IMG/VR virus record: IMGVR_UViG_3300020578_000011
Strand: one strand, 5' to 3'
Length of the DNA: 64,000 nucleotides
Source of the DNA: a virus
Under the pieces are notes generated by a model that saw nothing but the letters and a program-made list of their open reading frames with translations, was not told where the DNA came from and ran no database searches. Of the stretch, positions 10,367 to 43,955 are shown in pieces. Position 1 is the stretch's first letter, and each line of letters begins with the position of its first letter. The translations under genes and the position numbers were made by a program.

Positions 10367-10940
10367 TGATCAGGTTATTGAGGCCGAAAAGTATCTTAAA
10401 AAACACAAGACTGCTGGAATTCTCAGTAAACACGATGCAATGCCAATGTATGAGCTTTATATATTGGGATATACTTTTGAAGATATATCAAAAAGATACC
10501 CATCTATCCCATATGGGAAGATACTGTTAACCGCAGCTTTGAGTGGATGGTCTAAGGATAGGGAGGTTGTCGCAGCCTCTCTTTACGATCGTATTAAAAC
10601 TAGAATAGTAAGATCGACAGTTGAACAAGTTGAGTTCCTAACAGACATGATATCTGTTTCAAATGTAGAAACCTCTGAAGAAGTTAGAAAGTATCTTAAT
10701 GATCCGGTTGGAAATCCTCCACCCTCTTTTAGAATTAAAACTATAAAAGATTATCAACAAGTAATAGACATGTTGGCCCAGGTAGCTGAATCTGTTAGGG
10801 GAATGGCAAATCCATCAAACGTAAGCAACGATAACAAACAAATACCACAAAATGAAATAAAAAAAATAAGTAAGAAATCAAAATCTTCAAGTGAAGAAGC
10901 TGTAATATTAGCTGAGTTAGTAGGTGATACAAGTGAGTAA
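10320..10940 (+). CDS. Putative terminase small subunit
   Basis: N-terminal HTH (YILGYTFEDISKRY...GW), helical body, immediately upstream of TerL. Confidence 0.55.
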   Translation: MQKKNLTPREKYGLSNDQVIEAEKYLKKHKTAGILSKHDAMPMYELYILGYTFEDISKRYPSIPYGKILLTAALSGWSKDREVVAASLYDRIKTRIVRSTVEQVEFLTDMISVSNVETSEEVRKYLNDPVGNPPPSFRIKTIKDYQQVIDMLAQVAESVRGMANPSNVSNDNKQIPQNEIKKISKKSKSSSEEAVILAELVGDTSE

Positions 10941-13900
10941 ATGCAGTGTGCCCGGTTGTGAAAGAGTGGTTTTAGCAAAAAATTACTGCAAACAACATTA
11001 TAAAAAATTCATATCAAGACCTAAGGAAAGAGCTCAAAAAGCAGCCTTGGCAAAGGTTGTTAAAGAAAATAAAGAAATAGAAATAGAAATCAAACCTAAA
11101 GAAGCGATAGAGATAAAAGATCCTCAGATAAAGAGCAATATAAAGTTAACAGCCGAGCAATTAGAGAAGATATTTTTTTCTCCCTGTAGAACTGAGCAAG
11201 AATTAAAAAATTATATTAAATTCTTTTTCGGTCTTCATCTCCCCGATTTTAAGGTATCGAGATACGCGGATACGACGCCCTTCCATGCCATTTGGGAGGT
11301 GTATGACATAACAGTAAATAAAAACAACCCTAAAAATATCCAAGAAATTCTATATGTTGCAGGACGTGGTAGCGGGAAGTGCGTTTTGCAAGACACTGAG
11401 ATTCTTACGCAAAATGGACTTAAACGTGTACAAGACGTCAAGATCGGCGATGTGGTCTGGACAGGCTGGTCCTGGAGATCAGTAGTCCAGACCTTCGACG
11501 AGGGAATCAAAGACGGAGTCACTTTAATCACCAAGTTTATGAGCAAGCACGGCGTGTGGTCGCTCACTGGTTCTTTAAAGCATCGCGTTCAGGCACTGCA
11601 TCCAGAGACCAACAAGATCGACTGGGTATACATGAAAGATCTAACTCCTGGTCAGCTAGTCTATAGATCTATAGAATCCTTGGGCCATCTGGTGGACGTT
11701 TCTTCTAAGGACTACGATCTTGGCTGGGTTGCTGGCTGCATAGTCGGCGACGGTTGTGTGGGCAGAGGAACAAACACGAATATATCTATGTGTGCAAAAG
11801 ACCCAGACCAGCTTGTACACTATGTGAGTCTGATAGACAGGCACCTAGGTGTGACGATAAACGTAAATTCCAGCTCTAAGTCTTCTGCTATAAAGAATGC
11901 GTCGTCTTCTACTAAGGCGTTCAGAGACTTCTTTAGGACGTACGTCGAGGGTGAACTCTGCTACTTCAAGAAACTAAAGACATTAGACCACAGTCCAAGC
12001 TTCTTGGCTGGATTCATCTCCGGTCTGATGGAGACCGATGGGTCCAAGGACTCGATCACTCTAGCCAACCCAGAACTCATACAGCAGATAGCCAAGATCC
12101 TCAATGTCTTCGGCGTGCACTCTGTAATAAATAAGAAGCGGAGAAAAGCGTCGACCACAAAGTTCGTAAAAGATCACATTGTCGAGTATCACTCGGTTGA
12201 GTACAAAACCCCGCTTCCAGAGTATGTAATGCCGCTTTTCTCTAAGCGCGATGCCTTTAAGGCGCACGCCGTCAAGATGAACGAACAGTTCCGATATCCT
12301 TCTAAGCTCATAAAGTCTTTTGCGGACCACATAAAGCAAAAATACGAGATCGCAAACGGGTACTGGCGTTTAGAGGCCGGCAAGAAAACTCATTCCGAGA
12401 TCAAGTACTCTAAGGATCTCTGGGGATCCGGCGAGAAGTCTAAAGAGTCTTATGTCTATGGCCACAAGATCGACTACTTTATAAGTCTGGCCAACCGCTT
12501 AGAAGAGCACGAGTGGGCAGAGTATCTGTCTTTCATCAGAAAGGGTTGCTACGAGACCGTAGATACCATAACGTTCGGCAAGCACTATTTCTACGATCTA
12601 GAGGTAGACGTCGATCACGCGTACTGGTCGAACGGCTTCATCAGCCATAACACTCTCGGCATGGCTATTGCAGAATTGATGGTTCTACTGCATGATCAAA
12701 GAGACGTGGTACATGTTGGCGCAATTCTTTCTCAGGCAAAAAGATGCTATGAATATCAGCAGAAGTTTTTATTAAACGATAGAATTAAACCAATCGTTAT
12801 GCCTCCTAAGACGCCAGAGGCATCTAGAATTCTTGAAAGAACAACAATGGAAAGATCTACGTTTAATGTATCTGGCGAAAAGATAACATTAGAAGTTCTT
12901 CCGTGTACATTGAAAGCATTAAACGGCCCACACGTTCCACTTGTTGTAGTTGATGAGATCGATACAGTATCTGGCGAGTCTGTCAAGGCATATAAGGAAA
13001 TATCTGGAATGCTTGACTCAAAAAGAGGAAAAAGACCTCTTCGTGTTGGTATTTCGACTAGAAAAACTAGATACGGTCTGATGAATCAAGCTATTGAAAA
13101 TGCAGAAAAACAAGGAAGAAATGTAAGAAGATGGACTGCATTTGAGTTTACAGAAAGATGTCCAGATTCAAGATCTGGAACTTCTAAAATAGAATTATTT
13201 ATTGATCAAAATTCTTTTGATGTCAGAACAAGAAATGATTATGAAAGATTAGCAACTCAAAAACAAAAAGACTATGAAAGACATGAGATGTTTGAAGGGT
13301 GCTTGAAATGTCCACTTGCACCAATATGCTTAGGTGATGCTAAAAAACAATCTTCTAAATCATCAATGTTAAAATCGATTGATGAACTTGCTCAAAAAGT
13401 CTTATCAGAAGGACCAGATTGGGCAATGGCTCAGCTTATGAATTTAAAACCAAGTGTAGAAGGAATTATATATAAAGAATTTGATGAAAGAACCCATGTC
13501 AAAACATGGAATCAAATGTGGCTTATTTTAACTGGTAAAGAGTTCCCTGGCGAGTGTGATCATGATATTTTTATAAAAAAATGTCACTCAATGGGACTTC
13601 AAGCATATGCAGGAATCGACTGGGGTTGGTCTAATCCACATACTTTGGTTGTATTTTTTGTAGACAGTAGAGAAAATATATATGTAGTTAGATGCGATGG
13701 TCAAACATACATATCAAGACCGGCATGGATGCATATAGTAAAACATAAATGGCATAATAACTATAGAATTCAATTATATTTTCCTGATATGGCAGACCCA
13801 GGTGATGCTCAGGAAATGAGAAAAATGGGTCTTCCGACTACAACTAACTCAGAAAAATCAAATATCAATGCAGGTGTTCAAGTTATTAAAAAATGGTTAA

Positions 13901-14313
13901 GAACACCAGGATCCAATGAGGCCAAGATATTTTTTGCAGCTGAAACATGTAAGCCAATAATACAGGAATTTCAATTATATCATTTTAAAGCAGATGCAGC
14001 TGGAAACATGACAGATGACCCAGACACAGAACATGATCACTGGCTCGACGCATTAAGATACTCTTTAATTAATTTATTTGGTAAAAATACTATAGTATTA
14101 GGATCTGCTGGCGTTGATATGGATGTTTCTAAAATAGTTGACTCTAGAGGTCATTTTATAAAACCACCTACTCCAGAGGAGTACGCAAAAGTTAATAATA
14201 TACCTTTTAATTCAGAGTATTCTACTGATAATATAGGTAAAATAGGAAGGCTATCTGAATTAGATGAAGACAGCGAACAATCTTCTGAAGGTGGCTTTCT
14301 TTGGACTATGTAA
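10933..14313 (+). CDS. terL: Terminase large subunit (intein-containing)
   Basis: Walker A GRGSGK|T split by the intein, Walker B VVVDE, nuclease GIDWG and DHWLDALRY; adjacent to the portal. Confidence 0.93.
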   Translation: MSKCSVPGCERVVLAKNYCKQHYKKFISRPKERAQKAALAKVVKENKEIEIEIKPKEAIEIKDPQIKSNIKLTAEQLEKIFFSPCRTEQELKNYIKFFFGLHLPDFKVSRYADTTPFHAIWEVYDITVNKNNPKNIQEILYVAGRGSGKCVLQDTEILTQNGLKRVQDVKIGDVVWTGWSWRSVVQTFDEGIKDGVTLITKFMSKHGVWSLTGSLKHRVQALHPETNKIDWVYMKDLTPGQLVYRSIESLGHLVDVSSKDYDLGWVAGCIVGDGCVGRGTNTNISMCAKDPDQLVHYVSLIDRHLGVTINVNSSSKSSAIKNASSSTKAFRDFFRTYVEGELCYFKKLKTLDHSPSFLAGFISGLMETDGSKDSITLANPELIQQIAKILNVFGVHSVINKKRRKASTTKFVKDHIVEYHSVEYKTPLPEYVMPLFSKRDAFKAHAVKMNEQFRYPSKLIKSFADHIKQKYEIANGYWRLEAGKKTHSEIKYSKDLWGSGEKSKESYVYGHKIDYFISLANRLEEHEWAEYLSFIRKGCYETVDTITFGKHYFYDLEVDVDHAYWSNGFISHNTLGMAIAELMVLLHDQRDVVHVGAILSQAKRCYEYQQKFLLNDRIKPIVMPPKTPEASRILERTTMERSTFNVSGEKITLEVLPCTLKALNGPHVPLVVVDEIDTVSGESVKAYKEISGMLDSKRGKRPLRVGISTRKTRYGLMNQAIENAEKQGRNVRRWTAFEFTERCPDSRSGTSKIELFIDQNSFDVRTRNDYERLATQKQKDYERHEMFEGCLKCPLAPICLGDAKKQSSKSSMLKSIDELAQKVLSEGPDWAMAQLMNLKPSVEGIIYKEFDERTHVKTWNQMWLILTGKEFPGECDHDIFIKKCHSMGLQAYAGIDWGWSNPHTLVVFFVDSRENIYVVRCDGQTYISRPAWMHIVKHKWHNNYRIQLYFPDMADPGDAQEMRKMGLPTTTNSEKSNINAGVQVIKKWLRTPGSNEAKIFFAAETCKPIIQEFQLYHFKADAAGNMTDDPDTEHDHWLDALRYSLINLFGKNTIVLGSAGVDMDVSKIVDSRGHFIKPPTPEEYAKVNNIPFNSEYSTDNIGKIGRLSELDEDSEQSSEGGFLWTM
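11380..12651 (+). mobile_element. Intein (424 aa) with LAGLIDADG homing endonuclease
   Basis: Begins with C (CVLQDT), block B 'LTGSLKHRV', ends 'YDLEV..HAYWSNGFISHN' followed by T. LAGLIDADG motifs GCIVGDG and SGLMETDG. Visibly higher GC. Confidence 0.95.
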
Positions 14314-14343: not shown

Positions 14344-16287
14344 ATGTCATGGTTTGAAGATTTAAAAAAATCAATACAAGACCGTCTTGTAGAAGATATC
14401 GAGCAAATGACCAAAGCAGACGCAGATAAACTTCCAGAGAAGCCACAATCAGAAAATCAAGAATCAGGTCTTGTAAGAGGTAAGGCGATATTAACAGACC
14501 CTTATTTTGAACAAGCAAGTAATAATTATTTTCTTTCAAAAAATAAAATAAGCAGAATATCAAATAGAACTCTTAGAGACATGTCTCAAAGAGATTGGCT
14601 TGTTAGCACAATCTTACAAATAAGAGCAGATACTGTTTTAAGATTTTCAAGACGTCCAGAGCGCAGATACGATATGGGTTTTCGTGTCGTCAAAAGAGAT
14701 CACAGCGAGTCATTGTCTGAACAAGATATTGATAATATAAATATGTTGGAAAGTTATATATATAATTGTGGCAGAACTGAAAATGTCCCCAAAGGACAAG
14801 AAATGCTTTTAGGTGAATTTTTAAAATTAATAGTTAGAGATGGTCTTACTTTTGGATATGTGGCAGTTGAAAAAGTCTTAACAAGAACCGGGGCTCTTCA
14901 TCGCTTCAGACCTCTTCCTGCTGAAACAATGTACTTAATAAATCAAGCAATCAATAAAACAGTTGTAGAAGATCAAGTTAAAACTGCAATCAATATGTAT
15001 CATACTAAAAAAAGCGACAATGATCCAAGGGCGGATGGGTATCTTGCGCCTAGAGAAATAGATTATTATAAGTATGTTCAATTATCAACAGACAATAGAG
15101 TTTTAAATGCCTTTGGTGATGAAGACATGGTGTTTAAATTATTTAATCCACAAAACTATGCTGACTCTAATGGATATTGCATATCTGTAGTTGAGCAGGC
15201 AATCATAATGATAACAAATCATCTAAATATAGAGGCATATAATGCTAATTTTTTTACACATGGATATGCTGCAAGGGGTATTCTTCATTTAAAAGGTGCT
15301 GTTACTCAAAATACTCTTGCTTCTTTTAGAAGACAATTTTACAACACAATATCCGGATCCGCAAATGCTTGGAGAACTCCAATTGTTGCAGGCCTTGATG
15401 ATGTTCAATGGGTTCCAATGTCGGGTTCTGCACGTGAGATGGAGTATATAAATTTTAATTCTCATATAATGAGAGCTATTTGCGCACAATTTCAAATAGA
15501 TCCAATAGAAGTTGGATTAGATTATCTTACAACGGCAAACGGCAGAGCAAGTGCACAAGCTAAAGAATCTGGTCAATTTAAAATAACATACTCTCGTGAA
15601 CGAGGTCTAATTCCCATATTAATGCTTGTTGAAGACTTATTTAATCAAGATATCCTACCTGCTTTAGACAAAGATCTTGCAGATAAATATAAATTTAAAT
15701 TTGTTGGATACACAGATGACACGGCAATGACTGATATAAGTCTTCGTCAGGCACAGATGACAGTTTTTTCTTCAATGAATGATCTTCTTCACAATGAAGA
15801 AAAAACACAAATAAACCACCCCGCTGCAAATCTTCCATTGAATCAATCTTTTTGGAATCTTGTTGAAAAAAACATGACCCGTGGAGAGATTCGTGAATTT
15901 TTCTTTGGAGATAAGGGAGCATCTAAAAGACCAGAGTTGCAATATCTTCCATCGGATCCGGCATTTTTATCTTGGAATCAGTTAATGATGACAATTAATG
16001 TTCAACAACAACAAAAAGAAATACAAAAACAACAACAGCAACAACAGCAACAAATGCAACAACAACAAATAAAACTTCAAGAAAGTCAAGAACAAAGAGA
16101 ACAAGAAGCGCATGATCATCAGATATCTGAGTCTAAACAAGAGCAAGCAAACTCTGTTGTAAGATCTCAAGATCTTTCTAGTCTACAAGATTTGGCTAGA
16201 CAATACGGTGCCACAAAAGCAACAAACATAGGCGGAAAAGAATTAAAAAATCCAATAAATACCCTTGAAGAAATAGAAAAAAAATAA
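14344..16287 (+). CDS. Portal protein
   Basis: Follows TerL. YNANFFTHG..RGIL, SGSANAWRTP, REMEY, ICAQFQIDPIEVG, GLIPIL. Gln-rich tail. Confidence 0.9.
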   Translation: MSWFEDLKKSIQDRLVEDIEQMTKADADKLPEKPQSENQESGLVRGKAILTDPYFEQASNNYFLSKNKISRISNRTLRDMSQRDWLVSTILQIRADTVLRFSRRPERRYDMGFRVVKRDHSESLSEQDIDNINMLESYIYNCGRTENVPKGQEMLLGEFLKLIVRDGLTFGYVAVEKVLTRTGALHRFRPLPAETMYLINQAINKTVVEDQVKTAINMYHTKKSDNDPRADGYLAPREIDYYKYVQLSTDNRVLNAFGDEDMVFKLFNPQNYADSNGYCISVVEQAIIMITNHLNIEAYNANFFTHGYAARGILHLKGAVTQNTLASFRRQFYNTISGSANAWRTPIVAGLDDVQWVPMSGSAREMEYINFNSHIMRAICAQFQIDPIEVGLDYLTTANGRASAQAKESGQFKITYSRERGLIPILMLVEDLFNQDILPALDKDLADKYKFKFVGYTDDTAMTDISLRQAQMTVFSSMNDLLHNEEKTQINHPAANLPLNQSFWNLVEKNMTRGEIREFFFGDKGASKRPELQYLPSDPAFLSWNQLMMTINVQQQQKEIQKQQQQQQQQMQQQQIKLQESQEQREQEAHDHQISESKQEQANSVVRSQDLSSLQDLARQYGATKATNIGGKELKNPINTLEEIEKK

Positions 16288-17182: not shown

Positions 17183-17724
17183 AGATGGTAAATCAACAAA
17201 AAACAAATCAAATACAAAGAATTGAAACTTTAGAAAAACATATTGAAAATTTATCAATGGCACTTAGAGTAAACCAAATACTATTAAAGCAAACAATAGA
17301 CCAATTGCAGCCAATGCAATCAGAGCTAAAGACAAACACTAGTATACTTAGTGATTTTCAATATAGGGTTCTTGGATTGCAAAAATATCTTCCAATAAAT
17401 AACGAGGAGCTAACTTCTATTGTCAATGAATTAAAATCAACAGACTGGGATCGAGCATCTGACAAAGATGATTTAGATAAAAAACTTGAAAAAAAAGAAT
17501 TTGTTTCATCAAAAAATGACATAGTTATAATATCTTCTGTTGTATTGGAAGGAGAAAATGTTAAAGGCGGTATATTTAGATCAAAGATAAAATTAGAAGA
17601 AGCAGGCCAAGGTCTTGTTGATGTTCTTTTAAATAAAAAAGTAGGAGAAACAGTAGAGGCTGTGTTAAACGATGAGAAACATTTAGTAAGTTTATTAGGT
17701 GTTAGGACTACGAATTTAGAATGA
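17179..17724 (+). CDS. Coiled-coil protein with GreA/FKBP-like C-terminal domain
   Basis: N-terminal coiled coil; C-terminal 'LVDVLLNKKVGETVEA' resembles the Gre C-domain LxGKKVGD. Confidence 0.4.
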   Translation: MKMVNQQKTNQIQRIETLEKHIENLSMALRVNQILLKQTIDQLQPMQSELKTNTSILSDFQYRVLGLQKYLPINNEELTSIVNELKSTDWDRASDKDDLDKKLEKKEFVSSKNDIVIISSVVLEGENVKGGIFRSKIKLEEAGQGLVDVLLNKKVGETVEAVLNDEKHLVSLLGVRTTNLE

Positions 17725-18137
17725 ATGATACTAAAGAAAGATTTGATAAAAAATGCCCACGTCAGTTGAAAGACTATCCTAAGGGATATTGTCCATTAGC
17801 TGTTATTCGCCTAAAATGGCTTAGATCTCTTGGTAGAGAGCCAACTGAAGAAGAAGAACTCAATGCTCCTGGGTGCAATTGGGCAATTAATCATCAAATG
17901 TCTAGTTATTGTTGGTTTGTTTATGAAACAAAATTTATGCCAGATTCTCCTGTATCCGATGTTGAAATAGCTGCTGCTTTAAACATTTCTATAGAAACAG
18001 TAAAACAAGTTGCAGATTCTGCAATGTCAAAAGTGCAATCTTCTGAACTCGTGGTAGAACTAAAGAAGACTTTAGACGGGGAGTCTATCGTTGATGAAGT
18101 TCTCGGAGTTGAAGATGAAGCAATCTATTGCGAATAA
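17721..18137 (+). CDS. Cys-rich protein with sigma70 region 4-like HTH
   Basis: Four Cys, then 'SDVEIAAALNISIETVKQVADSAMSKV'. Confidence 0.6.
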   Translation: MNDTKERFDKKCPRQLKDYPKGYCPLAVIRLKWLRSLGREPTEEEELNAPGCNWAINHQMSSYCWFVYETKFMPDSPVSDVEIAAALNISIETVKQVADSAMSKVQSSELVVELKKTLDGESIVDEVLGVEDEAIYCE

Positions 18138-18381
18138 AGATTTAAAATCTAAAAATCTTCCAGAGATTCAATTAAAAAATCAAGAATTAGAAGAAGATGA
18201 AGAATTAGAAGAAAGTCAAGAATTAGAAGAAGATGAAGAATTAGAAGATTTAGAAGATTTAGATTTAATGAACCCTTCTGATTTTATTGAATTAATAAGC
18301 AATAATTATATATGTAGAAAAAACACTGGAAGATCTAGATTAAAACTCCACCCTAGTAAAATAAATATAAAAAATTACTAG
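18091..18381 (+). CDS. Small acidic repeat protein
   Basis: ORF with a duplicated QELEEDEELEE; start uncertain. Confidence 0.45.
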   Translation: MMKFSELKMKQSIANKDLKSKNLPEIQLKNQELEEDEELEESQELEEDEELEDLEDLDLMNPSDFIELISNNYICRKNTGRSRLKLHPSKINIKNY

Positions 18382-18429: not shown

Positions 18430-19311
18430 ATGGCTACTAAATTTGATGCGGTTGCAGGATCTGAGTTAAGAGACATTCAAGGAGAAATTCTAGATGTCAA
18501 AGGCGCAGATATTTCAGAATTAGAAGCTGGTCAAGGAATTGTTAACGACAACCATAGCAATAAGCTACCCGATGTCATCGGTAGAGTAACTGGTGCAAAA
18601 AAAATATTTAAAGTAGAAGATTGCGAAAGTGATCGTCAAAAATATTTTTGGAATAAAATAAAAGCTCCATATATATATGTTACAGGTGAACTTTTTGACG
18701 ATGAAGACCATAGATCAGCAAGGGCAGCGGCGGCTATATTAAGACATCAGCACAAAACAGATTCTCCACTTAAGCTAAAGTGCTCCGTAGAAGGAGGTAT
18801 AGTAGAAAGAGGCGAGAAAGACGATAGAATTTTAAAAAGAACAAAAATTAAAGGTTTAGCATTGACCTTTACTCCAGCCAATAATGCAACTCTTGTTGAG
18901 GGAGTTGATTTAAATAAAAGCAATAATCCACAAGAATTTGAATTAATAAAATCAATATCTCATCTAGCGAGAAAAGATGTTCCCTCTTTTATAGAAATGG
19001 CTGATACATTATCTGAAATTAAAATATTATCAAATGTAGAAAAAATAAAAGAAACAATATTAACTTTAAAAAAAAATAACATAAATAAAGCATTAGTCGC
19101 TGGATATGGCTCAGCAGGATCTCCGACAAGCCTAACTGGCGGCGGCGTTTTTCAAACTGAATCTATTGATACAAAATCAAATAAAAATCAGTATATAGAA
19201 TGTCCATCATGTGGTAAAGAGCAACCATATGTTGTATATCAAGTTAAATGTCGATCTTGTAATAAGCATTTTCCATTTGACACATTAGCTAAGTTCTTTA
19301 TAAATAAATAG
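18430..19311 (+). CDS. Prohead protease with C-terminal Zn ribbon
   Basis: RDIQGEIL, NDNH, CSVEG (catalytic Ser), LALTFTPAN; C-terminal CPSC...CRSC; lies before scaffold and MCP. Confidence 0.8.
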   Translation: MATKFDAVAGSELRDIQGEILDVKGADISELEAGQGIVNDNHSNKLPDVIGRVTGAKKIFKVEDCESDRQKYFWNKIKAPYIYVTGELFDDEDHRSARAAAAILRHQHKTDSPLKLKCSVEGGIVERGEKDDRILKRTKIKGLALTFTPANNATLVEGVDLNKSNNPQEFELIKSISHLARKDVPSFIEMADTLSEIKILSNVEKIKETILTLKKNNINKALVAGYGSAGSPTSLTGGGVFQTESIDTKSNKNQYIECPSCGKEQPYVVYQVKCRSCNKHFPFDTLAKFFINK

Positions 19312-19411: not shown

Positions 19412-19795
19412 ATGGCTAATTCTGTCCAGGTTCTTGATAAAGTGGCACGAAACCTCAATCAGCTAGGCGTTCCTGCTGTTCGTGGGGCTTCTTCAGTATC
19501 GGCTGCAGGACTTACTATATCTTATGTAAGCGCCTCGGTCCAATCTCCAATGGGTGGCGTTGACAAAGATGCTTCTCCATTTCTTGGTATTGGCGTTGCT
19601 GCGCCAGGTAAATTAAAAATCAAAGGTGCTGCTGGTGAAAATTCACTTGCTGCAATTTTGGACACTGCAGCGGCGGTAAATGTTCTTGCTGTTTGTTCTC
19701 GTTTTGCTAACAATCTCCAGATCGAAGCTGGTGATTCGGCATCAGTTCTTGTAGAACTCGCTGGTCATACAGATCTTTTGATGGTTGGTGAATAA
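19412..19795 (+). CDS. Virion structural protein (possible head decoration)
   Basis: Ala/Gly-rich, strong SD, head operon. Confidence 0.55.
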   Translation: MANSVQVLDKVARNLNQLGVPAVRGASSVSAAGLTISYVSASVQSPMGGVDKDASPFLGIGVAAPGKLKIKGAAGENSLAAILDTAAAVNVLAVCSRFANNLQIEAGDSASVLVELAGHTDLLMVGE

Positions 19796-19813: not shown

Positions 19814-20596
19814 ATGACTACAAAATTAAGCAAAAGTCTCGCCGATCTCATTGATGAAACTCTAGCTGAAATCGAAGAACTAAAAAAGTCTGATCGTTTT
19901 TCTGCTGAAGAAATCGAACTTGGAGAAAAGTCAGCACAAGGCGGAATGGCTAAGGGCGACGAAGAGGACGATGAGAAAGACGAAGACGAAGACGAAGACG
20001 AAGAAGCTAAGAAAGCAGAAGACGACGAAGACGAAGACGACGAAGAGCATGAAGAAGAAGATGAAGCCAAAAAAGCTGAAGAAGAATGCGAAAAAGCAGA
20101 AGCTGAAATGGCCAAGGCTGAAGATGAGTGCGAGAAAGCAGAGCATGCTTATTCAAAAGCGCTTAAAAAGCGTGAGATGTGTAAAGCAGAACTTGAGCAT
20201 AAACTCAAGAAAAAAGAGATGAAAAAACCTCACTGGGCTAAGAAATCAGAAGGTGTCAATCTCATGGTCAAAGAAGAAAAAGAGATGAAGAAGTCACTTG
20301 CAAAATCAATTGACGAAAGAATCTCACCTCTTGAGACCAAACTTTCTCAAGTTTTAGATGTTGTTAAACAACTTGCAGATACCCCATTCCCACAGCGTGG
20401 ACACACGTATCGTCAAATCCAGCCTCTTGCAAAAAGCACTGGAGATGTAGAACCTCTTAATAAGACAGCTGTTCTTAATAAACTTCTTGATCTTAAGAAG
20501 ACTGGAACAGATGTCGATGCTGCAGATGTGATTCGTGTAGAAGTTGGTGGAAATGGTGATCTTAACGAAGTTGCTAACAAATATGGAATTAAATAA
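19814..20596 (+). CDS. Capsid scaffold protein
   Basis: Highly charged E/D/K coiled coil with many xK-S/A sites, directly before the MCP. Confidence 0.7.
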   Translation: MTTKLSKSLADLIDETLAEIEELKKSDRFSAEEIELGEKSAQGGMAKGDEEDDEKDEDEDEDEEAKKAEDDEDEDDEEHEEEDEAKKAEEECEKAEAEMAKAEDECEKAEHAYSKALKKREMCKAELEHKLKKKEMKKPHWAKKSEGVNLMVKEEKEMKKSLAKSIDERISPLETKLSQVLDVVKQLADTPFPQRGHTYRQIQPLAKSTGDVEPLNKTAVLNKLLDLKKTGTDVDAADVIRVEVGGNGDLNEVANKYGIK

Positions 20597-20607
20597 GGAG
20601 AAAAATA

Positions 20608-22062
20608 ATGTACGCTGACGCTTTTAATCAGATTATGCAGGGAATTGAACAAGGAGTGGTCTCTCAAGAAGAGATTGAAAACCTTAATAAGGCACTAGTA
20701 GCGGGATACGGTGGTGCTGGTCGTCCTACTGATCTAACCTATGGCGGTGTTATTCAGACTGAGTCACTTGAATCAACTCTTAAAGTTGTTACATTTGACA
20801 TGAAGAATCTTAAACTCTGGCCAGCAATCACAATCGACAAGGCTTATAACCTATTCGAACAATATAACCGTCTTGTTGGATATGGTTCAGATACTTCGCC
20901 CTATATTGCTGAAGGCGGAGCTGGACAAGAATCAGATTCAACATATGTACGTGACGGACAGCGCATCGTGTTCTTCAGCAAGCGTCGTAAGGTTTCGCAT
21001 CAGATGACTCTTGTTCGCACAACCGTTGGAGACGTTGTAGCTCAACAGGCTAAAGAAGGAACAATGGACCTTCTTAAAGATGTTGAACGTGAACTATACT
21101 GGGGACATGCTCACTTTGCAGATGCATCTGGTGCTCAATCAGGTGCAACAGCTGATCTTCCAGTTAATTCACTTGCCATGAATGGCCTTCTACAACAAAT
21201 CCTTAAGGGTGATCGTGATAGCCAATTTACTTCAAAAGATTTTGAAGGTTGGGGCGCTGAGTCATCATCTGTTGTGAAGGATCTTGCTGGTCTTTCTTTT
21301 GCACAAGACGATGTTGAAGAACTTGCAGTTCGTGCTCTTGAAAATTTCGGAGCTCCAGATCAGCTTCACGCTGAGCCCGCTGCTGTTTCTACATTCGTTC
21401 GTCAATTTTATCCACAGTTCCGTTCTGAACCAGGTCTTGCTGGTCAAACTGTTGGTTATGACGTAGCAAATGTCACCACTACTGCAGGAAAAATTGCACT
21501 TAAACCAAGTCTTTTCCTACGTCCGCGCCAACAAGTTCGTCCAGCAGCTGCTTCAGCTTCTGCTCCTTCTGTTGCGGGTCTAAGTGTTTCTGGAGCTGCT
21601 GCAGGATCAGGATCAGCTCTTTCAGCTGGTAGTTATCATTATGCAGTAACTTTTGTTAATGACTTTGGCGAATCAGCTCCAATTTTAACTTCAGCACCAG
21701 TTTCAGTTACAGCTGGACAAGTTGTTGAATTGACTCTAGCTGGTTCTGTTCCATCTTCTGTCAAGCACATGAAGGTATATCGTGCCGCAAGTGGAGCTGC
21801 AGCTTCAACGGCGCAGTTTATCTCAAATCATCGCGTGGGACTCTCCGCTATTAAAGATGCTGGTGCCAAGCGCCCTGGTCTTGGTGAAGCATTCCTTCTT
21901 GATATGCGTGCTGAAACAATGAAGTTTAAGCAACTTGCTCCTCTTGCTAAGATGAATCTTGCTGTGGTCACAACTGCACTTGAGTTTCTCTTGCTCATGT
22001 ACGGAGCACTATTTGTTTACGCACCGCGATTCAATTGCGTAATGCGAAATGTTGGTAAGTAA
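20608..22062 (+). CDS. Major capsid protein (Herelleviridae-like) with inserted Ig-like domain
   Basis: LNK-ALVAGYG...ESLESTL N-arm (compare VxK-SFTTGYG), EQYNR, ELYWG, QLAPLAKMNLA, LMYGAL..YAP. Insert 'YHYAVTFVNDFGESAP...KVYR'. Confidence 0.9.
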   Translation: MYADAFNQIMQGIEQGVVSQEEIENLNKALVAGYGGAGRPTDLTYGGVIQTESLESTLKVVTFDMKNLKLWPAITIDKAYNLFEQYNRLVGYGSDTSPYIAEGGAGQESDSTYVRDGQRIVFFSKRRKVSHQMTLVRTTVGDVVAQQAKEGTMDLLKDVERELYWGHAHFADASGAQSGATADLPVNSLAMNGLLQQILKGDRDSQFTSKDFEGWGAESSSVVKDLAGLSFAQDDVEELAVRALENFGAPDQLHAEPAAVSTFVRQFYPQFRSEPGLAGQTVGYDVANVTTTAGKIALKPSLFLRPRQQVRPAAASASAPSVAGLSVSGAAAGSGSALSAGSYHYAVTFVNDFGESAPILTSAPVSVTAGQVVELTLAGSVPSSVKHMKVYRAASGAAASTAQFISNHRVGLSAIKDAGAKRPGLGEAFLLDMRAETMKFKQLAPLAKMNLAVVTTALEFLLLMYGALFVYAPRFNCVMRNVGK

Positions 22063-35854: not shown

Positions 35855-36208
35855 GTGAGTTTTGCTAAAAAATATGCAACAAGTCAATTAGGTGTCCTTG
35901 AATACAAAGGAACATGGAACGCAAACTCAAATTATCCTTCTTTGACTAGTTCCGTTGGCGACAAAGGTGATTATTATATTGTATCTGTTGCTGGTGCAGC
36001 ACCATTAAATGGAATAACCGATTGGCAACCCGGAGATTGGGTTATTTTTTCCGGAACTGAATGGCAAAAACTTGATAATAGTGAAAGTGTTACAAGTGTA
36101 AATGGACAAACCGGAAATGTGGTTATAGACCAAATCGGCGAACTAGATGGCGGCGAAGCACATACCCTTTATGGTGGAAATGGCGTTTTTAGCGGAGGAG
36201 GTGCATAA
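35855..36208 (+). CDS. Tail fibre-associated protein
   Basis: YKGTWNA...GDYYIV...GDWVIF..W.K and VTSVNGQTG; SD AGGAG before GTG 35855. Confidence 0.7.
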   Translation: MSFAKKYATSQLGVLEYKGTWNANSNYPSLTSSVGDKGDYYIVSVAGAAPLNGITDWQPGDWVIFSGTEWQKLDNSESVTSVNGQTGNVVIDQIGELDGGEAHTLYGGNGVFSGGGA

Positions 36209-36450
36209 TGGCAGTTAAAATTCAACTTCGACGAGATACTGCGGCAAATTGGCAAAGTGTCAACCCAGTATTATCTATTGGCGAACCTGCGATTGAAATT
36301 GATACAGGTCAAGTCAAAATCGGAAATGGTGTTGACGCTTGGAACTCTTTACAATATACCCTAAATATTGAACGGCTTGAGAATATCGATGGCGGAACGC
36401 CAAGTAGTAATTATGTTTCAGCACAAAGCATATCAGGAGGAACACCCTAA
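36208..36450 (+). CDS. Stand-alone Mtd N-terminal domain protein
   Basis: IQLRRDTAANW..NPVL..GE...DT..KIGNG...W..L.Y. Confidence 0.8.
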   Translation: MAVKIQLRRDTAANWQSVNPVLSIGEPAIEIDTGQVKIGNGVDAWNSLQYTLNIERLENIDGGTPSSNYVSAQSISGGTP

Positions 36451-37676
36451 TGGCTATTCAAATTCAACTTCGACGCGGAACCGCTGCACAATGGACTGCA
36501 GCAAATCCCGTTTTGGCTCAAGGTGAAATGGGCGTAGAAACAGATACACAACAGTTTAAGATTGGTAATGGGACAACCGCATGGAGTTCGCTTAGTTACG
36601 GTGGGTTGCAAGGCGCCACCGTTTCGTCAGTAAATGGTCTGGTCGGAGCGGTTAGCTTAGGTTCTGACCAAGTTTCTGAAGGTTCGCAAAATCTTTACTT
36701 TACTGAAACGCGAGCAAAAAGCGCCGCAGTTATTAATAATATGTCTGGTTTGCAATCAGATGCAGCTCCGTCTGTATCTGCCGTTAAAGATTACGCTGCG
36801 CAATATATGAAAAAAGGCTCTGCAATTTGGTGCCTAGCCGGAGGCGAATACCCAACCTTGCAAGCAGCTATTGACGCGGCATCTCCGGGACAAGTTATCT
36901 TACTTGGCGAAGGCGTTTGGGGAGACGCAACGCTCAAGGGGCGCGTTGATATTATTGGATTGGGTGTGCCAAGAAACATCGGTATTGTTGTTGGCAAGCT
37001 TAGCTTTGCTCCAACAAGTGGCTCAGCTGTAGACAACCAAGTGTTTATTTCAAATATACTCATTAGTGCCAGTTCTGCAGCCAGCGGCATTTCACTTGGC
37101 GGTACAGCTCCAGTGCGCCTTAATTTAAGTGGTTGCTACGTGTACAGAGGATCTGGGACATCGAGCTTGGTAAGTCTAACAAATACAGATACATCTGCCA
37201 CAAGTGTCAGAATGGACGGATGTACTATTAATTCCGGCGGAGCAGACGGAACGTTGGTTACAACGAATGTAAGATTCTTAAGAATTACTAATTCTGACCT
37301 TTATGGAGCATCAAAAGCATTGGTTGTAAACGGTGGCCTTGCGCAAGTTGCATTTTCGGGTATTGAAACCAATTCTGCTACTGAAATCATTCAGGTTGCG
37401 GCGGGAGCGACATGTGCAATTAGTTCATCCCTTGTTCGTAACCTAACCGCAAACGGAAGCGGAGTTTCTGTTGCTACAAATGGTGCGTTTGTCGCTTCTA
37501 CTCTTACTATGTTTGATGTGGCAAGTGGCACAGGATACTGCGTAAGAGGTACCGGAACAATGATTTATGATGTTATTTCTTTTAATCATATTAATGGTTT
37601 GCAGCCAAGAAATATAAAATTGCAAAATACTCTTGGGATTGTTCAATTGCCTTCTACTCCTACCTTGGTGCCATAA
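36450..37676 (+). CDS. Tailspike-like receptor-binding protein (Mtd-N plus beta-helix)
   Basis: Mtd-N motif, NLYFTETRA, YPTLQAAIDAA..G..I.L..G (start of a pectin-lyase-like helix). Confidence 0.75.
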   Translation: MAIQIQLRRGTAAQWTAANPVLAQGEMGVETDTQQFKIGNGTTAWSSLSYGGLQGATVSSVNGLVGAVSLGSDQVSEGSQNLYFTETRAKSAAVINNMSGLQSDAAPSVSAVKDYAAQYMKKGSAIWCLAGGEYPTLQAAIDAASPGQVILLGEGVWGDATLKGRVDIIGLGVPRNIGIVVGKLSFAPTSGSAVDNQVFISNILISASSAASGISLGGTAPVRLNLSGCYVYRGSGTSSLVSLTNTDTSATSVRMDGCTINSGGADGTLVTTNVRFLRITNSDLYGASKALVVNGGLAQVAFSGIETNSATEIIQVAAGATCAISSSLVRNLTANGSGVSVATNGAFVASTLTMFDVASGTGYCVRGTGTMIYDVISFNHINGLQPRNIKLQNTLGIVQLPSTPTLVP

Positions 37677-37996
37677 TGATTGTTGGCCACTTAAAAGATG
37701 AACTTCTGGATCATGTTGAAAAAGATGAATTAACAGAACAAGATCGTAATATGTATAAAGAAACTAGTCAATGTTCACAGGGGCATGAAGGTTCTGTTGT
37801 TCTTGTTGAAGAAAAGAAAGACTAGTATATTAAATTTATAATTTTTAAAATTAATCAAAATGAATTCAAATCTCCAGTGTTTGAAACAAAATCATTAAAT
37901 AAATGTTTAAATTTTATATATACACAAATTTCTGAATATTTATTTTCTATTGAAAAGAATGATGATTTTAAAAATGAGTTAGGTTATTTAACCTAA
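37676..37996 (+). pseudogene. 106-codon ORF interrupted by an in-frame TAG at 37823-37825
   Basis: TAATG-coupled start, 49 codons, TAG, 56 further sense codons, then TAA. Confidence 0.55.
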
Positions 37997-38059
37997 CAAT
38001 TGTGATATATTTTATGTGTAATACTTACACGTTTAAACGTGAACAGAAAGGTAACAATA

Positions 38060-38716
38060 ATGGCTCTTTCTAGTAAAGCTCGTAAAGTACTTGAAGTAGG
38101 TTTGGCAAATAGATCAGTCGCTCGTGAAATTGCAGATGCAATCGACTCGGGCGGAGGCGGAGGCGTTGCTGGTCCACAAGGTCCTGCTGGTGCCGTTGGT
38201 CCACAAGGTCCTGCTGGTGCTGCTGGTCCACAAGGTCCTGCTGGTGCTGCTGGTCCACAAGGTCCTGCTGGTGCTGCTGGTGCTGCTGGTCCACAAGGTC
38301 CTGCTGGTGCCGCTGGTGGAGCTCCGGTATCTAAATTTATAGAATTATCATCCGGCGCAAGAGTTAGAATCTCTGCTTTTGGATCTCAATCAGATGTAAA
38401 TAGCGTATCAATGGTTTTATCAGGTGGCAATACGCTTACAATAAGCAACGTTGCAAGTTCTCTTGTGTTGCATGATGTAACTATCTCATACGACGCAGGC
38501 ATTAATGCATCTGCTAGTTTTAGTTTAGTTTATCCAGAGCCACATGCTCAAACCGACCTTCTTCTTACAAAGTTTCCTATAATGCAGCATTTTAATGCAG
38601 TTGGTGTTATACAGCTATCTAATAGCATAGCCGTAGCAAACAATGCTGGTGTTGTTACTGTAAGTAAGAGTAGTTTGGCTTCTGGTTCAGGCGCATTTTT
38701 TAAAGTACATTTTTAA
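38060..38716 (+). CDS. Collagen-repeat virion protein
   Basis: GPQGPAGAA repeats; SD before ATG 38060. Confidence 0.8.
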
Positions 38717-38732
38717 TTAAGGAAAAAACACA

Positions 38733-41700
38733 ATGTCACAACCTATTTTAAACGCCAAGATAACATTAAATTCAGTTGCTCCTGTCGGTGTTGGTAATAT
38801 TTCTTGGAATGTTAGTTTTTCTGTTTTAGATTTAGAAGGTGTTTTTAGTGGGTTGGATGTTGCTGTTAATGATATTCTTTTACTAGATACATCAGGCGAC
38901 ACACTTGGAACTGTTACTCAATATAAAATTACTAATATTTCTAGCAAAACTTTTGCACAAGTTTCTTGTACTGTTTCGTTAGATGATGACAACGTATCTG
39001 CTCCAGATTTAAATGCAGCATTAGGTTTAGACGGAGCTGTTATTAGACAGACAGCTAACAAACGATTAAACATCGTTCCCGCACCAGGTGTTCAAGGTCT
39101 TCCTGATAAATTTGCTATTTATCCACTCAACTCTAATTCAAAATCAAAAATAGATGTATTAGTTGGAGCTCAAGGAGAAGCTGGTCCACAGGGTCCACAA
39201 GGCGAAATGGGCCCACAAGGCCCACAGGGTCCACAAGGTCCGCAGGGTGAAATAGGTCTGCAAGGTCCTGCCGGAGTAAATGGCTCCAACGGCCAAGATG
39301 GAGCCCAAGGTGAAATGGGCCCACAGGGTCCACAAGGTCCGCAGGGTGAAATAGGTCTGCAAGGTCCTGCCGGAGTAAATGGCTCCAACGGCCAAGATGG
39401 AGCCCAAGGTGAAATGGGCCCACAGGGTCCACAAGGTCCGCAGGGTGAAATAGGTCTGCAAGGTCCTGCCGGAGTAAATGGCTCCAACGGCCAAGATGGA
39501 GCCCAAGGTGAAATGGGCCCACAAGGTCCGCAAGGCGTACAAGGCGAAATGGGTCCACAAGGTCCGCAAGGCGTACAAGGTGCTCAGGGTCTTAAGGGCG
39601 ACAAAGGCGATCAAGGTGAAATTGGTCCACAAGGTCCAGCTGGAGTAGACGGTTTGCCAGGGGCAACTGGTGCAGTTGGTGAAATTGGTCCACAAGGTCC
39701 ACAAGGCGAAATGGGTCCACAAGGTCCACAAGGCGAAATGGGTCCACAGGGTCCACAGGGTTCGCAAGGTCCGGTTGGGTCTGCTGGAGATAGATACCAT
39801 ACTACATCAGTTTCTGAATTTACAATACAAGCAAGTGGTCAGTTTTCTGTAATGACCGATGATTTAGGTTTAGATTATTCCATAGCTCAAACTGTAATTT
39901 TAGCCTATGATCTAAATAATCATCAACATGCAAAAGTAGTTAGTTATAATAAAATAACTGGAGAATTAGTTTTAGAAAGAACAGATTCGTCTGGAAGCGG
40001 TACATATTCTAGTTGGAGTATCAACTTAGATGGAGCAGTGGGAATCGAAGGTCCACAGGGTCCAATGGGCCCACAAGGTCTTCAAGGCGTTCCAGGAATC
40101 CAAGGTCCACAAGGTATTCAAGGTGCCCAGGGCGCAGCAGGAAGCAATGCTGTAATAACAGGTGCGGCTTCTTCTGTTGTTGATAGTGATTTAGATTCAT
40201 TAAAGGTTGTTGTTTCTGATATTTCTGGAAAAATAGATTCTTCATTAGTGTCTGTTGATGAATTGAATCATTTATCTGGTGTTGTTTCACCGCTACAAGC
40301 TCAATTAAATGCTGAAGCATCTGCTCGCCAAGCAGCAGATTCAGCTCTCCAATCTGACATAGATGCAGAAGAAGCTAGAGCACTAGCGGCCGAAGCAGCC
40401 GAAGCATCTGCTCGCCAAGCTGCAGATTCAGCTCTCCAATCTGACATAGATGCAGAAGAAGCTAGAGCACTAGCGGCCGAAGCAGCCGAAGCATCTGCTC
40501 GCCAAGCAGCAGATTCAGCTCTCCAATCTGACATAGATGCAGAAGAAATTAGAGCATTAGCAGCCGAAGCAGCAGAAGCATCTGCTCGCCAAGCAGCAGA
40601 TTCAGCAGAAGCATCTGCTCGCCAAGCAGCAGTTTCTGCTCTTCAGTCTGATATAAATGATGAAGCATCTGCTCGCCAAGCTGCAGATTCAGCAGAAGCA
40701 TCTGCTCGCCAAGCAGCAGATTCAGCTCTCCAATCTGATATAGATGCAGAAGAAGCTAGAGCACTAGCGGCCGAAGCAGCCGAAGCATCTGCACGTCAAG
40801 CAGCAGATTCAGCTCTCCAATCTGATATAGATGCAGAAGAAGCTAGAGCACTAGCAGCCGAAGCAGCTCTTCAATCTGATATAGATGCAGAAGAAATTAG
40901 AGCATTAGCAGCCGAAGCAGCCGAAGCATCTGCTCGCCAAGCTGCAGATTCAGCTCTCCAATCTGACATAGATGCAGAAGAAGCTAGAGCACTAGCAGCT
41001 GAAGCAGCAGAAGCATCAGCTCGTCAAGCAGCAGATTCAGCCGAAGCATCTGCTCGCCAAGCAGCAGATTCAGCTCTCCAATCTGATATAGATGCAGAAG
41101 AAGCTAGAGCACTAGCAGCCGAAGCAGCAGAAGCATCTGCTCGCCAAGCAGCTGATGCAGCAGAAGCATCAGCTCGTCAAGCTGCAGATTCAGCAGAAGC
41201 ATCTGCACGTCAAGCAGCAGATTCAGCTCTCCAATCTGACATAGATGCAGAAGAAATTAGAGCATTAGCAGCCGAAGCAGCTCTTCAGTCTGACATAGAT
41301 GCAGAAATTTTAGCTCGTCAAGCAGCTATATCTCAAGAGGTGTTAGATAGAAATGCAGCAATACAAACTGCAGTGACTGAATCGATAATTCCAAGAACTG
41401 ATGTTACTTATGACTTAGGTAGTCCTACTAAAAGATTTAAGGATCTTTATTTAAGTGGAAATAGTATTATCTTAGGCGATACAATAATTTCCTCAGACGC
41501 TGGTGCATTGGATCTTTCTGCGGGTGCAAAAGTTGGCGGTGTTTTAATAGCATCAACAGATTTTGTAAATGGTGCAATAACTAACTTAGTTGGCGGTGCT
41601 CCTGAGTTATTGAACACATTAAATGAACTTGCTGCTGCAATTAACGATGATGAGAGTTTTGCGACAACCGTTGCAAATAGTATAGCATCTGTTCAATCGG

Positions 41701-43919
41701 GGTTAGATGCAGAAGAAGCTAGAGCACTAGCAGCTGAAGCAGCAGAAGCATCTGCACGTCAAGCAGCAGATACTACTTTGCAAAATGATATAAATGATGA
41801 AGTATCTGCTCGCCAAGCAGCAGATTCAGCAGAAGCATCTGCTCGCCAAGCAGCAGATACTACTTTGCAAAATGATATAAATGATGAAGTATCTGCTCGT
41901 CAAGCGGCAGATACTACTTTGCAAAATGATATAGATGCAGAAGTATCTGCTCGTCAAGCGGCAGATACTACTTTGCAAAACAATATCAACAACAAACAAG
42001 ACACTGTTACAGGTGCTGCAACTTCAGTTGTTTCTTCTGATTTGACAGCTTCTAGAGCAATGGTTTCAGATGCATCTGGTAAAATAGCTGCTTCTTCAGT
42101 AACTTCTACTGAACTTGGGCATTTATCTGGTGTTACTTCTGGAATACAGTCACAGTTAAATGGTAAACAAGCTACTATTACGGGTGCTGCAACTTCAGTT
42201 GTTTCTTCTGATTTGACAGCTTCTAGAGCAATGGTTTCAGATGCATCTGGTAAAATAGCTGCTTCTTCAGTAACTTCTACTGAACTTGGGCATTTATCTG
42301 GTGTAACTTCTGGAATACAGTCACAGTTTAGTTCAGTAAACACATCACTAGGTGGTAAACAAGCTACTATTACGGGTGCTGCAACTTCAGTTGTTTCTTC
42401 TGATTTGACAGCTTCTAGAGCAATGGTTTCAGATGCGCTTGGTAAAATAGCTGCTTCTTCAGTAACTTCTACTGAACTTAGTTATGTTTCTGGTGTAACT
42501 TCTGGAATACAGTCACAGTTAAATGGTAAAGAACCAGCAATTACTGGTGCTGCAACCTCGATTGTTTCTAGTGACTTGTTAGCTTCTAGAGTGGTTGTTT
42601 CAAGTGCCTCTGGCAAGATAACTACTGCTACCTGTACAGCTACTGAACTTAACTATGTTTCTGGTGTTACTTCTGGAATACAGTCGCAGTTTGGTTCAGT
42701 AAACACATCACTAGGTGGTAAACAAGCTACTATTACGGGTGCTGCAACTTCAGTTACAAATAGCGATTTAGTAGCCTCTAGAGCAGTGGTTTCAGATGCA
42801 TCTGGTAAAATAGCTGCTTCTTCAGTAACTTCTACTGAACTTGGCTATGTTTCTGGTGTAACTTCTGGAATACAATCACAGTTAAATGGTAAACAAGCTA
42901 CTATTACGGGTGCTGCAACTTCAGTTGCTTCTAGTGACCTATCTGCATCTTTAGCGCTTGTTTCAAATGCATCTGGTAAAATAGCTGTTTCTTCAGTAAC
43001 TTCTACTGAACTTGGCTATGTTTCTGGTGTAACTTCTGGAATACAATCACAGTTAAATGGTAAACAAGCTACTATTACGGGTGCTGCAACTTCAGTTGCT
43101 TCTAGTGACCTATCTGCATCTTTAGCGCTTGTTTCAAATGCATCTGGTAAAATAGCTGTTTCTTCAGTAACTTCTACTGAACTTGGCTATGTTTCTGGTG
43201 TAACTTCTGGAATACAATCACAGTTAAATGGTAAACAAGCTACTATTACGGGTGCTGCAACTTCAGTTGCTTCTAGTGACCTATCTGCATCTTTAGCGCT
43301 TGTTTCAAATGCATCTGGTAAAATAGCTGTTTCTTCAGTAACTTCTACTGAACTTGGCTATGTTTCTGGTGTAACTTCTGGAATACAATCACAGTTAAAT
43401 GGTAAACAAGCTACTATTACGGGTGCTGCAACTTCAGTTGCTTCTTCTAATTTGACAGCTTCTAGAGCAATGGTTTCAGATTCATCTGGTAAAATAGCTG
43501 CTTCTTCAGTAACTTCTACTGAACTTGGGCATTTATCTGGTGTAACTTCGGCTATTCAAACTCAATTAGATGCAAAAGCTAGCAAAGATGCAAATGGATC
43601 ACTGCAGGCAACTGGTTTTATATATGGAGCAAACTCTATAAATGTTAAAACCGGAGCATATACACTAACTTCTGCTGATAATGGAAAAACAATTGTTGTT
43701 AATAGTGCATCTGCAGTAAATATTACAGTTCCTTCTGGTCTTCCTGCATTTTTCAACTGTATGGTTATTCAAGTAGGAGCAGGTCAAGTTACTATGGTTG
43801 CAAGCAGTACAACATTAAATTCAGCAAATGGTCTTAAGACATCTGCTCAATTTGCAGCGTTGTCATTACTTGCATATGATACTAATATTTTCTGTGTATC
43901 TGGCTCTACTTCTGTTTAA
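38733..43919 (+). CDS. Long tail fibre/appendage (collagen, coiled-coil and 57-aa repeats)
   Basis: Gly-X-Y tracts, EASARQAAD heptads, [21 protein letters not shown], nine 57-aa units, C-terminal [10 protein letters not shown] domain. Confidence 0.85.
39166..39790 (+). repeat. Collagen-coding repeats including a triplicated 99-nt unit
   Basis: ggtgaaataggtctg at ~39246, 39345 and 39444. Confidence 0.9.
40310..41990 (+). repeat. Coiled-coil-coding repeats ([26 protein letters not shown])
   Basis: Many near-identical shuffled DNA blocks; also present at ~35275-35430. Confidence 0.9.
41994..43570 (+). repeat. Nine ~171-nt (57-aa) tandem repeats
   Basis: [12 protein letters not shown]...GIQSQLNG; the units at 42891-43403 are essentially identical. 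Confidence 0.9.
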
Positions 43920-43955
43920 TTTTAATTTAATAACTATTAACGAGGAGAACATAGT

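Follow-up and report, generated by a model that had tools for sequence, protein, structure and literature searches.

The prohead protease of the phage analysed here carries near its C-terminal end a second, separately encoded version of a short region of the major capsid protein (MCP), namely its predicted maturation site and the start of its N-arm. This pairing of protease and MCP segments is a family-wide feature, and only the zinc ribbon that follows the segment in the present phage is specific to its clade. The segment is interpreted as a functional copy that co-evolves with the MCP and would serve as a self-cleavable, capsid-like tether by which the protease is loaded into the procapsid, a reading that we regard as about evenly poised between right and wrong.

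The + strand of the window (the whole stretch of DNA that was analysed, 64,000 nucleotides in length) contains a phage head module, in which portal, protease, scaffold-like protein and MCP follow each other in this order:

10924-14313, + strand: large terminase, 1129 aa, with an intein-like insert
14344-16287, + strand: portal
18430-19311, + strand: head-maturation (prohead) protease gene, 293 aa, between portal and MCP (phrog_1028)
19412-19795, + strand: ORF of 127 aa, rich in Ala, Gly and Val, between protease and scaffold, without Pfam or PHROG match
19814-20596, + strand: acidic scaffold-like protein, 260 aa, recognised by its position between protease and MCP
20608-22062, + strand: MCP gene, 484 aa, SPO1 type (phrog_752, PDB 9vel, tblastn)

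The nearest cultured relatives of the protease and MCP are SPO1-type (Herelleviridae) phages and Myxococcus phage Mx1, with an identity of about 27-34%, while the closest relatives overall are uncultured phages represented by contigs of about 150-178 kb.

Several other elements of the window are recorded here in their own right. Residues 360-412 of the terminase match a LAGLIDADG-type homing-endonuclease domain (PF14528, E=5.7e-6), and the terminase gene therefore probably contains an intein. Within the head module, a 138-aa ORF (17721-18137, + strand) resembles sigma-70 regions 3 and 4 only weakly, at E values of about 1e-3 that miss the threshold, and may encode a late-gene regulator. The short ORF found 5' of the protease (18091-18381, + strand) is composed mostly of Glu/Leu-rich repeats and, instead of being a gene, may represent intergenic DNA with repeats. 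The G+C content is 0.42-0.43 at positions 36001-44000 versus 0.31-0.39 in the rest of the window.

By sequence comparison, the window MCP is an SPO1/Herelleviridae-type major capsid protein of the HK97 fold, with matches to phrog_752 (E=1.1e-58, residues 14-483), SPO1 gp6.1 (PDB 9vel; E=1.3e-54) and the phi812 MCP (5lii; E=3e-6), as well as tblastn matches in SPO1-like phages, Mx1 and Bacteroides phages. Its AF2 model, built on 30 sequences, was poor (mean pLDDT 56, with residues 23-163 below 50), so that nothing could be learned from it about the N-arm.

The 293-aa protein matches phrog_1028 (head maturation protease; E=1.2e-15) and has 391 metagenomic homologues. A Pfam search of the window proteins recognised neither its protease nor its zinc ribbon, and an NCBIfam search returned no protease family for it. 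From an AF2 model built on 28 homologues and the alignments described below, its parts are as follows:

18430-18909, + strand: catalytic core, aa 1-160, pLDDT mostly 75-95
18928-19074, + strand: helical linker, aa 167-215, with predicted helices at 167-180 and 187-215
19078-19173, + strand: MCP-like segment, aa 217-248, consisting of P4-P1 of the predicted cut site and a stretch that copies ~27 residues from the start of the mature MCP N-arm
19183-19302, + strand: C-terminal four-Cys zinc ribbon, aa 252-291, with Cys 258, 261, 274 and 277

The modelled core is of the gp21/assemblin-type fold. Its best structural match is T4 gp21 (5jbl; Z 8.4, rmsd 2.8 A over 123 residues), followed by about 30 herpesvirus assemblin entries (Z 5.2-8.1), which rank above unrelated MCE-domain rows (Z up to 5.3); the Foldseek probability for the assemblin fold is 0.8-0.96. 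These scores are modest. Residues H42 (18553-18555), H94 and S119 (18784-18786) are invariant in the 28 homologues and are candidate catalytic residues. The same is true of C258, C261, C274 and C277, which form two CxxC pairs in a small, compact, strand-rich unit with short strands (pLDDT 77-85). On this model, the C-terminal region is a four-Cys zinc ribbon with a predicted metal site; matches to zinc-ribbon families were sub-threshold only, including eS27 (E=0.45) and the NCBIfam CxxC family NF047912 (E=0.0057, 16.5 bits vs a cut-off of 37). A reading made from the sequence alone, hereafter the sequence-only reading, had identified this gene as a prohead protease fused to a zinc ribbon (CxxC...CxxC), and both assignments are borne out, the former by the PHROG match and the fold of the core, the latter by the invariant cysteines and the predicted folded unit. 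Between the folded parts, residues 218-251, which include most of the MCP-like segment, have a pLDDT below 50 and are predicted to be disordered, as would fit a linker or tether.

When the whole protease was compared with the whole MCP, BLASTP returned one significant alignment (residues 191-248 versus 3-56, 46% identity, E=9e-12). The local alignment score was 123, against 29.8 +/- 5.0 for 200 shuffles (z=18.8), and chance similarity is ruled out by these values. The core of the match joins residues 217-248 of the protease to the following part of the MCP:

20680-20775, + strand: the shared segment as it occurs in the MCP, aa 25-56, spanning the predicted cut site and the beginning of the N-arm (BLASTP, profile)

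An ungapped comparison of 33 positions gives 23 identical residues, only 8 of which are specified by the same codon, and a nucleotide identity of 65/99. Both the relationship of these two stretches and the divergence of their codons had been proposed in the sequence-only reading, and both were confirmed. The MCP counterpart is nearly invariant among 30 MCPs of the clade; the MCP-like segment is kept in 120 protease homologues, and its residues K220, L222, A224, G225, P232, G238 and Q242 are invariant in the 28 homologues used for modelling. A profile of the segment searched against all six-frame ORFs of the 64-kb window revealed no third copy beyond protease and MCP, and no description of such a protease/MCP copy was found in the full-text literature searched for this feature.

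The sequence-only reading had treated the segment as peculiar to one phage, a view that did not survive comparison with other genomes. Equivalent protease-to-MCP matches were obtained for Mx1 (E=3e-8), CP-51 (E=7e-12) and a Twort-like Staphylococcus phage (E=7e-11), and also for SPO1, a Sepunavirus, Listeria P100 and Enterococcus EF24C; across eight phages of distant lineages, the pairing gave z values of 14-20. Among IMG/VR loci from uncultured phages in which both genes are present, the shared block occurs in all 46 unique cognate pairs (46/46). The segment is thus found in every SPO1-type relative tested, in Mx1 and in these 46 pairs.

The two copies also vary together. Across 22 aligned copies, drawn from 11 phages and loci, the two belonging to a single phage share 44-68% identity (41% at one uncultured locus), whereas orthologous copies, protease to protease or MCP to MCP, are 18-50% identical between deep lineages; for four deep lineages, the cognate pairing is the best of 24 permutations. 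In the group comprising Staphylococcus, Listeria and Enterococcus phages, for instance, a Ser-Phe start and a Pro-Asp-Thr-Gln stretch appear in both copies at once. Since paralogous copies are closer to each other than orthologues from deep lineages, the two copies co-evolve, and the co-variation that the sequence-only reading had suggested looking for in homologous pairs is present. Within subfamilies, segments cluster by protein type, with orthologues (53-88% identical) nearly always closer than paralogues. Codons are identical at only 7-13 of 15-23 identical residues, and synonymous sites have diverged in all eight phages, indicating that the match is kept by selection at the protein level; recent gene conversion is ruled out by this divergence. 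Overall, the copies appear to co-evolve slowly under a common constraint rather than to be homogenised continually.

The position of the predicted cut is suggested by deposited structures of the phi812-type MCP. In PDB entries 9row, 9rox and 9roz, the chain corresponds to residues 25-463 of the 463-aa precursor (5lii) and begins at Ser25, after a Lys. This mature N-terminus was taken from the deposited PDB sequence, and a primary report of it was not found in the literature searched. The Lys aligns with K28 of the window MCP and K220 of the protease, and it alone is invariant throughout the 22 copies from the 11 phages and loci. Two features of the window follow from this alignment:

19087-19092, + strand: predicted self-cleavage point K220-A221 of the protease, aligned with K24-S25 of the phi812-type MCP
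20608-20691, + strand: predicted 28-aa MCP propeptide ending in K28, aligned with the phi812-type MCP

The sequence thus reads as a maturation site made of Lys followed by a small residue, with indirect experimental support from the start of the phi812-type chain. The sequence-only reading had placed the cut at the Lys-Ala just before the shared block, in agreement with Ser25 as the first residue of the deposited chain. A cut of the Glu type, close to where the shared block ends, was dropped as a candidate, the deposited chain having pointed to the Lys-Ser site.

On these grounds, a mechanism in three steps is proposed. First, the protease would cut the MCP after K28, removing its propeptide, and would cut itself after K220, at the same Lys-small site; this step is argued from the homologous phi812-type MCP and is backed indirectly by experiment in that relative, while the two later ones are our inference. 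Cleavage after K220 would yield a 220-aa enzyme and a 73-aa tail starting like the mature MCP. Second, this self-cut would separate the catalytic core, along with any inserted domain, from the tail composed of the arm copy and the zinc ribbon. Third, the copy would bind whatever partner the real N-arm binds, be it the scaffold or the inside of the shell; in this way the enzyme would be incorporated into the procapsid and then free itself. The third step draws on the length and behaviour of the copy, which is far longer than a cut site requires, follows the MCP of its own lineage in each case and hence most likely has the same partner as the N-arm.

Two observations bear on whether so long a copy is needed for cutting. 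The scaffold-like protein has Leu-x-Lys-(Ser/Ala/Thr) motifs at 20426-20437 and 20456-20467, located in conserved columns of 34 homologues. In the window, both are of the form Leu-x-Lys-(Ser/Thr) and lie about 45-55 aa from the C-terminal end, and no N-arm-like extension follows the Leu-x-Lys motifs in the 34 homologues. These motifs are of low information, six Leu-x-Lys-small occurrences being present in this Lys-rich protein, and are candidate protease sites whose cleavage would detach the scaffold C-terminal domain. The second observation comes from Bacteroides phage DAC19 (MT074139.1), which encodes a phrog_1028 protease (L085:4425-5270; E=7.6e-26). Its MCP keeps a Gln-Lys-Ala-type site, whereas the tail of its protease has only a short Gln-Lys-Ala look-alike, and no second copy of the MCP segment was detected anywhere in its genome, making this phage a natural "minus" control for the module. 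Taken together, these sequences suggest that cutting requires no more than a short motif and can do without the long copy. With such short putative sites in the scaffold and in the DAC19 protease, the ~27-residue copy on the P' side looks like an addition with a purpose of its own. The most economical purpose would be binding to the procapsid partner of the N-arm, which in other HK97-fold phages is the scaffold, and this is the step of the argument that we hold least firmly.

The same co-variation would also arise if the sole shared partner of the two copies were the substrate-binding surface of the protease itself. The segment would then be an extended substrate and nothing else, that is, a self-processing site with a long P' side because this enzyme family reads a long substrate, with no role in recruitment. 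This alternative is quite possible, if on the unlikely side. It accounts for the invariant P1 Lys and the small P1' residue in both proteins, and two substrates of one enzyme are expected to co-vary; there is also a precedent in another prohead protease, SPN3US gp245, which removes its own 64-aa C-terminal propeptide at the motif that it uses on head proteins (PMC10052503). It fits less well with the short scaffold motifs and the DAC19 look-alike, which are putative sites lacking any extension. Assemblin-fold proteases, moreover, are not known to read anything near 27 residues on the P' side, as established for the sites of herpesvirus proteases.

The distribution of the module among homologues offers a further view of the proposed tether. 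Searched against 1.84 billion representatives, the 77-aa tail retrieved 92 proteins. A protease domain could be recognised in 57 of them; in 50 of these the module forms the extreme C-terminal end, and in 7 the sequence continues beyond it. The 35 without a detected protease domain included 2 that did not match the module, 2 MCP-like N-terminal pieces and many short proteins. In all of the 20 protease-less carriers that were compared (20/20), the alignment starts at or close to the first residue and falls within internal regions of protease homologues, which identifies these 20 as 5'-truncated gene calls, and stand-alone or non-protease carriers of the module were accordingly rejected; a search for shorter carriers gave two short matches, both on contigs of 1-2 kb. 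Several homologues exist in a long form of 700-1200 aa (L021:5992-8865, L062:5932-8802, L082:5974-8784 and L081:5986-8094; proteins P0123, P0126 and P0138), with HEAT-repeat blocks or a GNAT acetyltransferase placed between the core and the segment/ribbon module. These inserts reach about 650 aa, and a few long forms run on for 57-585 aa after the ribbon, or for more than 1000 aa in one truncated gene call. The position of the module at the C-terminal end in 50/57, whatever is inserted upstream, was counted in favour of a tether. The 7/57 with sequence beyond the module, and the Mx1 protease with about 970 further residues after the segment, were counted against a tether that is universally C-terminal.

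The inserted or trailing domains of the long forms may be cargo delivered by the capsid. By extension, the arm copy could be viewed as a portable "pseudo-subunit" tag, which would present an MCP N-arm to the scaffold or shell and thereby load the protease and its fused parts (HEAT-repeat blocks, GNAT acetyltransferases, long Mx1-like tails) into the procapsid, where the Lys-Ala cut would release them, the zinc-ribbon piece staying behind as a virion component in this clade. We put this extension forward tentatively and consider it doubtful.

Two further explanations for the segment appear improbable. As an autoinhibitory pseudo-substrate, the copy would fill the active site, within its own chain or within a dimer, keeping the enzyme quiet until assembly, when it would be cut or displaced. 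An intact substrate-like site on a flexible linker near the core would suit this role, and T4 gp21 is restrained by autoproteolysis (PMC12991175), but inserts as long as those of the long forms are tolerated between core and segment, and in the AF2 model the segment is not placed against the core (pLDDT below 50 for residues 218-251), which counts as weak evidence. The other explanation, to which we likewise assign little probability and which is compatible with the tether, is that the 73-aa piece of arm and zinc ribbon stays in the head as a minor capsid or internal protein, either making arm-like contacts or lying on DNA. The zinc ribbon is strictly conserved in this clade, and purified virions of a P100-like Listeria phage were found to contain the prohead protease, but that virion study does not specify which part of the protease was present (PMC12282133). 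The ribbon is, however, absent from the proteases of Herelleviridae, in which a different, Cys-free tail follows the segment, and from that of Mx1. The arm sites of the lattice would in addition be filled by the arms that each MCP subunit brings with it, and docking of the tail into those sites is for this reason the weakest of the options listed in the sequence-only reading, a shared third partner being more plausible.

That the segment is a functionless relic of a duplication or of a protease-MCP fusion, or a stretch refreshed by recombination, is scarcely credible, for although the two genes lie 1.3 kb apart on the same strand and recombination is physically possible, it runs against the diverged synonymous sites, the clustering by protein type within subfamilies and the retention of the segment, with its invariant residues, from Firmicutes phages to a Myxococcus phage.

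How maturation proteases enter the procapsid, and how their action is timed, is understood for few models, namely HK97, T4, lambda and the herpesviruses. A co-evolving copy of the cut site and N-arm within the enzyme provides a concrete and testable answer for the whole SPO1 group, which includes Staphylococcus, Listeria and Enterococcus phages used for therapy or biocontrol and for which genetics and cryo-EM already exist. If the copy is a loading tag, chosen proteins could be packed into the capsids of this group, and if the broader view of a pseudo-subunit tag were true, it would amount to a natural, programmable system of capsid loading and release, distinct from the T4 leader. The novelty specific to this window is modest, consisting of a clade-specific zinc ribbon and variable inserts ahead of a family-wide module.

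Among known systems, the T4 capsid-targeting sequence is similar in that a short shared peptide combines prohead loading with a protease cut site, but it is an N-terminal leader, carried by many internal proteins and discarded. In the phage studied here, there are two copies in 64 kb, the one in the enzyme lying towards its C-terminus, and the likeness is on the retained (P') side. The segment is not a T4-type leader, being carried in the window only by the protease and the MCP, and not at the N-terminus of the protease. The gp21-type protease gp245 of Salmonella phage SPN3US resembles the present enzyme in removing its own C-terminal piece at a substrate motif; in that case, the motif is Ala-x-Glu, the short motif alone is shared and no copy of a capsid arm has been described. 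HK97 gp4 is also a prohead serine protease, in which packaging into the procapsid is credited to the C-terminal tail rather than to the catalytic core; Duda, Oh and Hendrix reportedly found in 2013 (in J Mol Biol) that its C-terminal region directs encapsidation. The HK97 tail has not been reported to be MCP-like, and its MCP has a 103-aa delta domain in place of the short propeptide and separate scaffold seen here; the CP-51 protease matches TIGR01543 weakly, below the cut-off (E=3.5e-5).

The closest parallel is with herpesvirus pUL26, a precursor with release (R) and maturation (M) sites, in which an assemblin-fold protease is likewise followed by a linker and by sequence common to another assembly protein. 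This shared part is believed to bring the protease into the procapsid, where self-cleavage would free it, and the third step proposed above would correspond to this release-site logic. In pUL26, the shared part is the C-terminus of the scaffold (pUL26.5), expressed from a nested in-frame gene and therefore identical in DNA, whereas here it is a copy of the cut site and N-arm of the MCP that resides in a gene of its own and has diverged in its codons, the scaffold being a third protein. The principle is thus known from pUL26, HK97 gp4 and SPN3US gp245, and what is new is a separately encoded copy of the capsid cut site and arm, in a protease that would work like a pUL26-type precursor without being a member of that family.
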